From the IMG/VR virus record IMGVR_UViG_2874915312_000001: a stretch of 13,872 nt of DNA. One strand, given 5' to 3'. Positions 5,955 to 6,000 of this stretch are shown here, piece after piece (positions within the stretch are counted from its first letter, which is position 1; each line of letters begins with the position of its first letter). Source of the stretch: a virus (Duplodnaviria; Heunggongvirae; Uroviricota; Caudoviricetes). A model generated the notes under the pieces. It did no database searches and was not told the DNA's origin. It worked only from the letters and a program-made list of their open reading frames with translations. A program made the position numbers and the translations under genes.

Positions 5955-6000
5955 GTCTTTCAGTCACTCCGGGATTTCCCATCATCGCAGACTGAAAGAC
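5955..6000 (-). terminator. hairpin (11-bp stem GTCTTTCAGTC / GACTGAAAGAC, 24-nt loop) just 3' of the tRNA array
   Basis: Perfect 11-bp inverted repeat at 5955-5965 and 5990-6000. It may be a processing or termination structure for the tRNA transcript; there is no strong U-tract. Confidence 0.25.

Follow-up and report, generated by a model that had tools for sequence, protein, structure and literature searches.

The inverted repeat at positions 5955-6000 of a 13,872-nucleotide stretch of tailed-phage DNA (the window) encodes a conserved, putatively functional RNA structure, hairpin A, on the minus-strand transcript, in which the stem has been kept by compensatory and G·U changes. Hairpin A is followed on the same strand by two further conserved hairpins, B and C, and together the three constitute an undescribed, widespread and modular family of prophage leader/trailer RNA structures with a kink-turn signature, for which a role at the junction of tRNAs and lysis genes is proposed here. 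The features of the window are listed in Table 1.

The locus is the late operon of a degraded lambdoid prophage, comprising Q, tR', four tRNAs, the hairpins and an S21 holin, and a prophage of E. coli CFSAN029787 matches the region at 100% identity. Along the minus strand, the Q antiterminator gene is followed by a strong tR'-like terminator, the tRNA array, about 290 nt without a gene and a class II holin. The array (6007-6317) gave Rfam tRNA matches of 56-70 bits. If the CAT tRNA is Ile2, all four tRNAs would read A-ending codons (AUA, AGA, ACA and GGA). These codons are rare in E. coli. A promoter belonging to the tRNAs themselves was considered and rejected: two sigma-70-like sites were found against 2.1 expected, and the -35 hexamer is not conserved, as homology to the relatives stops at 6334.

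This copy of the locus is degraded. Q is cut short (6612-6809, minus strand, junction near 6614-6624) by a 113-bp deletion relative to E. coli CFSAN029787, and the remaining 65-aa ORF aligns only to positions 1-53 of the 118-position Pfam model Phage_antitermQ. An IS66-family element adjoins the holin and stands in place of the rest of the lysis cassette (window 1-5463). An rve-integrase (IS3-like) ORF is located at 1197-2036 and the host gene mlrA (yehV) at 1-534, the left end of the window. From the position of mlrA and the IS66-family replacement, the window is a prophage remnant beside mlrA.

Table 1. Coordinates of features in the window (position 1 is its first letter)
Feature	Position	Strand	Description
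IS66-family tnpA-like gene	2790-3464		
IS66-family tnpB	3461-3808		
IS66-family tnpC	3828-5429		
Class II holin, phage 21 S type	5499-5714	-	First lysis gene downstream; Pfam PF04971, E = 1.1e-35; RefSeq agrees
Decayed intrinsic terminator after hairpin C	5775-5800	-	CGC-UUUU-GCG then U run; 3-bp stem, -3.3 kcal/mol
A-B-C region	5822-6000	-	Three stem-loop modules; tRNA genes on one side, lysis genes on the other
Hairpin C	5822-5876	-	Closing stem of 8-9 bp (perfect repeat 5822-5830/5868-5876, 9 bp) and inner 10-bp bulged stem
Hairpin B	5875-5947	-	14-bp closing stem (5875-5888/5934-5947) around 8-bp inner hairpin; invariant 9-nt loop AAAUUGCUG
Hairpin A	5955-6000	-	Outer 11-bp stem, 6000-5990 paired with 5965-5955 on minus-strand RNA
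Hairpin A interior, kink-turn candidate	5966-5989	-	Fits the K-turn definition of PMC4316175
Spacer GUCAGA	6001-6006	-	6 nt from tRNA-Gly CCA to stem; putative site of endonucleolytic separation
tRNA Gly(TCC)	6007-6081	-	ARAGORN, Rfam; last of array
tRNA Thr(TGT)	6085-6160	-	ARAGORN, Rfam
tRNA Arg(TCT)	6163-6239	-	ARAGORN, Rfam
tRNA Met/Ile2(CAT)	6241-6317	-	ARAGORN, Rfam; RefSeq name tRNA-Ile
Sigma-70-like promoter match	6327-6356	-	TTTGCA-18-TATTAT; just upstream of first tRNA; weak
tR'-like intrinsic terminator	6409-6430	-	Between Q gene and tRNA array; AAACCCGCC/GGCGGGUUU then U6, -18.5 kcal/mol

The perfect 11-bp repeat described in the initial annotation was found exactly as placed. Its arms, GTCTTTCAGTC (5955-5965) and GACTGAAAGAC (5990-6000; both in plus-strand letters), are 11 nt each, 100% complementary and 24 nt apart. 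The start 7 nt after tRNA-Gly also held, with the stem beginning at the 7th nucleotide past the encoded CCA of tRNA-Gly(UCC), the last of the four tRNAs called by ARAGORN. On the minus strand, the CCA of tRNA-Gly is followed by the spacer GUCAGA (6006-6001) and then by hairpin A; the spacer of relatives reads GUUAGA, GUUUAA, GUAAAA, GUUAAA, AAAAA or CUCAA. The 24 nt previously taken as a loop are correct in length and not open in structure, since folding and RNAalifold show interior pairs: the arms enclose two further pairs, an asymmetric 5/2 internal loop, a 4-bp helix and a 4-nt apical loop. The RNA folding check that had been recommended gave a stable minus-strand hairpin (-22.5 kcal/mol, z = -3.26), and 0 of 200 shuffles were as stable. 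By itself such a repeat (perfect, 11 nt or longer, within 60 nt) is not unusual, occurring in 14% of dinucleotide shuffles of the window; exactly two (A and B, 8 nt apart) occur in the window itself, compared with 0.15 expected (P for at least two = 0.007). Given its conservation and covariation in relatives, hairpin A is well beyond chance.

Relatives were gathered by scanning IMG/VR with conserved loop words, which yielded more than 150 contigs. A scan of contigs with the 14-mer TCTGCGATGATGGG gave only chance matches in unrelated phyla (L125-L244), which were left out. Hairpin A was aligned with MAFFT in 26 distinct variants (alignment A3), the structure not being used as a reference. In these related prophages the hairpin is kept: 95.9% of the stem cells are paired, compared with 40-49% with slid partners. 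Changes on both sides of a pair occur at four of the 11 pairs of the outer stem (CG/UA, UA/CG, UA/CG/UG and AU/GC/GU), and the covariation score was reached by 0 of 500 column shuffles. The homologue in phage HK639, at 75-79% identity, carries compensatory changes in all three stems. The independent covariation events are few, because most of the double changes divide two clades, the window type and the HK639 type.

Covariation support for hairpins B and C is at least equal to that for A. In the A-B-C alignment, helix 3 of hairpin B is compensatory at five of 15 pairs and its helix 4 is 99.5% paired; hairpin C combines a conserved G/U-rich sequence with compensatory changes at four of the eight pairs of helix 5. 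For the three hairpins jointly, 98.6% of cells are paired, compared with 41-48% with slid partners, and RNAalifold recovered all three from the alignment, with 13 of 58 pairs compensatory. The loops are near-invariant (AAAUUGCUG in hairpin B and the GGGUGGUUUGUUGG region in hairpin C), which suggests sequence-specific contacts and a function beyond passive protection.

The strand was assigned from the wobble pairs. G·U pairs outnumber A·C pairs by 67 to 5 in hairpin A (A3) and by 214 to 8 in A-B-C (alignment A2), so the pairing is held only in minus-strand RNA, the strand of the tRNAs and late genes. A covariance model of hairpin A (R1) matched the minus strand at 77.7 bits and the plus strand at 20.4 bits.

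At least one module was found in 138 contigs, as ABC in 113, BC in 11, AB in 10, A alone in two, AC in one and B alone in one; from these combinations the modules are separable. Among complete E. coli genomes the element is present in 536 of 5,426 (about 10%), and RefSeq carries no annotation at A-B-C in any of these 536. As in the initial annotation, the hairpin is an RNA structure associated with the 3' end of a tRNA array: hairpin A lies 5-6 nt past the CCA of tRNA-Gly in most loci and of tRNA-Met(CAT) in one (L111), and at loci without A it is hairpin B that begins 1-2 nt past the CCA. A lysis gene follows on the same strand at 117 of 149 loci, with holins of three unrelated families, which indicates a general leader module that is not tuned to the start region of one holin.

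In HK639 (L003) the homologous block lies, as in the window, between Q and the holins, with a degenerate tRNA-Gly before it and an annotated terminator after it. A-B-C is conserved there at 75% overall identity and its downstream flank is unalignable. Of the HK639 tRNA-Gly (2674-2753, minus strand) only the 3' half is retained, with 47 nt that match the window exactly; the 5' half is divergent and gave no ARAGORN call, which places a mosaic joint within the tRNA gene. An Rfam match to the STnc100 sRNA (2206-2411, minus strand; 52.6 bits, gathering threshold 47) comes directly after the A-B-C terminator, and a sub-threshold isrJ-like match (2838-2910) covers the PR'-proximal transcript. The HK639 late leader is a chain of terminator-ended RNA units. 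A sensitive blastn search of 50,697 phage records, a comparison at the sequence level, returned six records, HK022 not among them. The put antiterminator RNA of HK022 (putL/putR) consists of two adjacent stem-loops that act in cis on RNA polymerase.

The terminator that follows hairpin C has decayed in the window and is sound in relatives. In the commonest relatives it consists of CCCGCUUUUGCGGG and a U run (-11.5 kcal/mol), and the annotated HK639 terminator has -13.0 kcal/mol; the window copy has lost two G's relative to the relatives' version. At one locus (L080; 2405-2803, minus strand) a gene for a YcgJ-family secreted protein occupies precisely the A/B junction, which can thus be an insertion point for cargo. 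This gene lends some weight to the notion, also put forward initially, of an insulating structure before a cargo slot; against it, the stretch from A to the holin in the window is not empty, containing B, C and the decayed terminator. At another locus (L245; approximately 1914-1968, plus strand) the 5' half of tRNA-Gly is joined to the interior of hairpin A at a CAGCC/CAGTC microhomology, with tRNA and stem both destroyed; a deletion through the microhomology is the better explanation of this fusion.

The interior of hairpin A fits a kink-turn, which is defined by a canonical helix, a 3-nt bulge and then 3' G·A and A·G pairs (PMC4316175). Read 5' to 3', it consists of a U bulge, G·U, C-G, GAU, GA, UGGG, AAAU, CCCG and GA. 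U5989 is bulged, and G5988·U5966 and C5987-G5967 end the C helix. G5986, A5985 and U5984 would be the 3-nt bulge, followed by the tandem pairs G5983·A5968 and A5982·G5969. The NC helix opens with U5981·G5970 (3b·3n) and continues with GGG5980-5978 paired with CCC5973-5971 below the apical loop AAAU (5977-5974). G24, A25, A39 and G40 do not change in any of the 26 variants of A3, and C20 and G38 hardly change; the 3b·3n pair is found as the non-Watson-Crick combinations U·G, U·U and A·G, three G-C pairs come after it, and the apical loop varies freely. The bulge, the tandem G·A/A·G pairs at conserved positions, the non-Watson-Crick 3b·3n pair and the resumed Watson-Crick pairing all agree with the kink-turn consensus, from which a kinked three-dimensional fold is predicted.

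Known K-turns (Kt-7, the U4 snRNA 5' stem-loop and box C/D RNAs) share with hairpin A a C-G-closed C helix, a 3-nt bulge, tandem G·A/A·G pairs and a non-Watson-Crick 3b·3n pair (U·G, U·U or A·G) before Watson-Crick pairs. Unlike them, hairpin A belongs to an E. coli prophage transcript beside tRNAs and has neither guide regions nor C'/D' boxes. Its AUGAUGG and C(G/U)GA resemble box C (RUGAUGA) and box D (CUGA), a likeness that accounts for a sub-threshold Rfam match to an archaeal C/D RNA (sR38; 12 bits, gathering threshold 50, E = 6.5). Box C/D small RNAs have boxes C, D and C'/D' together with guide sequences of 10-21 nt. With only 3-4 nt between the box-like halves, and given the sR38 score, identification of hairpin A as a box C/D RNA was rejected. 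Literature searches found nothing specific on a K-turn in coliphage or prophage RNA, and we know of no L7Ae-family K-turn-binding protein in E. coli.

Other identities were also examined and set aside. Rfam 15 has no match to A, B or C in either clade, and RF02076, RF02702 and RF02703 gave no match within 5716-6006. ARAGORN and Rfam found no tRNA or tRNA relic in 5822-6006. A tRNA-derived origin, prompted by a shared GAUGAUG and by the L245 fusion, was rejected, as the local alignment of hairpin A with tRNA-Gly (score 14) was not significant, 17.6% of shuffles scoring as high (p = 0.18). A coding explanation, through a 59-aa minus-strand ORF (5711-5890), was rejected: the ORF has no Pfam match, and the compensatory stem changes, the loop indels and a post-C flank that is unalignable with HK639 speak against it.

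The reading that we favour, tentatively, gives hairpin A a role in processing and RNA stability where the tRNAs meet the downstream RNA, and makes A-B-C both the 3' trailer of the prophage tRNA array and the lysis-cassette leader. We infer from the sequence every step beyond the conserved RNA structure itself. RNase P, acting at the tRNA 5' ends, and RNase E, cleaving within the short A/U-rich spacer (6001-6006), would together free the tRNAs from the transcript. After cleavage in the spacer, the 13-bp helix with its kinked cap would form the extreme 5' end of the downstream RNA. In relatives the latter would be a trailer-derived species of about 230 nt, A-B-C ending at the terminator after C, and hairpin A may also be the 5' domain of this small RNA; in the window, whose own copy of the terminator has decayed, this downstream RNA would be the holin message. 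At the 5' terminus, hairpin A would give the tRNA a well-defined 3' limit and protect the RNA that follows against 5'-end-dependent decay; a surface for protein binding or tertiary contacts may come from the kink-turn, and under Q antitermination the A-B-C structures would be the leader of the lysis message. With the post-C terminator decayed and Q broken, any transcript through the window tRNAs would run into the holin gene.

E. coli resolves its polycistronic tRNA precursors with RNase P and with RNase E, which cuts just downstream of the CCA, and a 5'-terminal stem-loop guards an RNA against 5'-end-dependent decay. The 3' processing role suggested for hairpin A at the outset is plausible. 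As hairpin A is absent from the 11 BC-only loci and stands approximately 320 nt from the nearest tRNA in L119, it is not strictly needed for tRNA maturation. Stabilizer hairpins at the 5' terminus (ompA 5' UTR type) and phage RNase III processing hairpins (T7 R1.1 type) are known. Like these, hairpin A is a stable stem-loop that would lie near a 5' end made by processing, and an asymmetric internal loop interrupts its helix. The helix of hairpin A (13 + 4 bp) is shorter than that of typical RNase III substrates, and its internal loop follows the K-turn consensus.

Phage tRNAs have another structured neighbour in the theta (minimal HDV-like) ribozymes, which lie 3' of gut-phage tRNAs and have been proposed to handle the tRNA 3' trailer (PMC10879173). 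They resemble hairpin A in being conserved structured RNA directly 3' of phage tRNA genes (PMC10879173). In contrast to these nested double pseudoknots, which cleave at their own 5' end, hairpin A is a 13-bp covarying helix with a K-turn, located 6 nt past the CCA. An HDV-like or theta ribozyme was rejected, since the covarying structure is a single extended hairpin and no HDV-family Rfam match was obtained at E up to 10 (theta may be absent from Rfam).

A more far-reaching view is that A-B-C is an undescribed structured ncRNA family of enterobacterial lambdoid prophages, fused to the tRNA array and with a true kink-turn as its first domain, that acts as a specific regulator (protein platform, sponge or attenuator) of tRNA output or lysis-gene expression and not as a passive end-protecting hairpin. 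We consider this possible and somewhat doubtful. If it is correct, a K-turn RNA would operate in a host in which we know of no L7Ae-type reader, and a genuine kink-turn at this site would raise the question of what reads K-turns in E. coli. The RNA element, covarying and unannotated, separates prophage tRNAs from lysis genes in about one tenth of complete E. coli genomes. Should the element control tRNA release from the late transcript or the stability of the lysis message, it would be part of the machinery that times prophage induction; in related phages the same slot harbours Shiga toxin genes and validated virulence sRNAs. The element would also be a compact natural module for synthetic tRNA-mRNA operons.

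The main rival to the processing and stability hairpin, compatible with much of the evidence and in our estimate rather unlikely, makes hairpin A the 5' domain of a trans-acting sRNA (A-B-C plus terminator, about 230 nt) that would either be cut from the tRNA precursor or be transcribed from a promoter of its own, and whose conserved loops would pair with host or phage RNAs. There is a precedent in the glyW-cysT-leuZ tRNA operon of E. coli, from whose 3' external transcribed spacer the small RNA (sponge) 3'ETS-leuZ is cut. Like 3'ETS-leuZ, A-B-C has the last tRNA of an operon on one side and an intrinsic terminator on the other, and the cut that matures the tRNA would release it. This position is found in relatives, with terminators of -11.5 to -13 kcal/mol, compared with -3.3 kcal/mol in the window. 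A-B-C differs in being about four times longer, in having three hairpins and no sequence similarity to 3'ETS-leuZ, and in being phage-borne and also the leader of lysis genes. Literature searches for a prophage tRNA 3'ETS sRNA found nothing specific.

The near-invariant loops of B and C, the good intrinsic terminator with a U tail that ends the unit in relatives and, in HK639, its tandem arrangement with the terminator-ended STnc100 match all suit an sRNA, as does the region between Q and the holin, which is also home to the validated sRNAs PasA, PasC, PasD, AgvB and AsxR. PasA, PasC, PasD, STnc100, AgvB and AsxR resemble A-B-C as terminator-ended units between Q/PR' and the holin, with PasD and STnc100 sharing its late-operon orientation. 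They differ in not being attached to tRNAs, and identity with any of them was rejected for want of sequence or Rfam similarity; blastn against the E2348/69 pasD2-esterase-pasA-holin locus gave no match longer than 11 nt. Against an sRNA, the modules occur apart (BC, AB or A alone), which is a better fit to independent hairpins than to an integrated sRNA, the post-C terminator has decayed in the window and no Rfam match exists.

Next in rank, and quite improbable, is a riboswitch- or attenuator-like cis leader in which the kink-turn hairpin is a specific site for protein binding or tertiary docking and the terminator after C sets how much transcription reaches the lysis genes. The layout of structured RNA, terminator and gene is of this kind, the kink-turn consensus is invariant next to a variable apical loop, and K-turns typically serve protein binding or tertiary contacts and are frequent in riboswitches (PMC4316175). 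Several observations stand against such a leader: inspection by eye showed no alternative pairing of A-B-C with the terminator that was convincing and shared by both clades, Q-modified polymerase would pass the terminator anyway, hairpin A is missing from the BC-only loci, and no K-turn-binding protein was seen among the neighbouring genes, nor do we know of one in E. coli.

Termination at hairpin A, which the initial annotation had allowed for, or a transcript-end signal of the tRNA operon would account for a stable hairpin directly after the last tRNA, but is highly improbable and, as far as the sequence can tell, contradicted: the hairpin is followed by no U-tract in either clade (GUUUAAGUU here, GACCUAG in HK639), the terminator scan found no match there, the 24-nt interior is structured in place of a 3-8 nt loop, and conserved structure continues for another 130 nt, through two more hairpins, to the canonical terminator after C in relatives. 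We give equally little credence to a DNA-level palindrome (a protein-binding or recombination site) or a functionless chance repeat, since the frequency of single 11-bp repeats in shuffled windows (14%) and the nearby mosaic joints (the HK639 tRNA-Gly 3' half, the L245 deletion and the L080 gene insertion) would permit either, but both are contradicted by the strand asymmetry (67 G·U to 5 A·C pairs, a bias that a DNA palindrome would not give), by the compensatory changes at four stem positions and by conservation at 75% identity beside an unalignable downstream flank.

Two further repeats were noted in the window. A perfect 9-bp inverted repeat (5665-5673/5720-5728) pairs the Shine-Dalgarno region of the holin (GCGGAGGUG) with holin codons ~14-16 and is not part of the minimum-free-energy fold. 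Start-site control is known for S-type holins, and the repeat might relate to it. Near-identical short hairpins (GCGTATTTTTCA...TGCAAAATACGC) are located at 2338-2371 and 13834-13867, and the regions around them (2042-2700 and 13505-13872) have the same matching sequences at other loci, a pattern suggestive of two copies of a mobile element.
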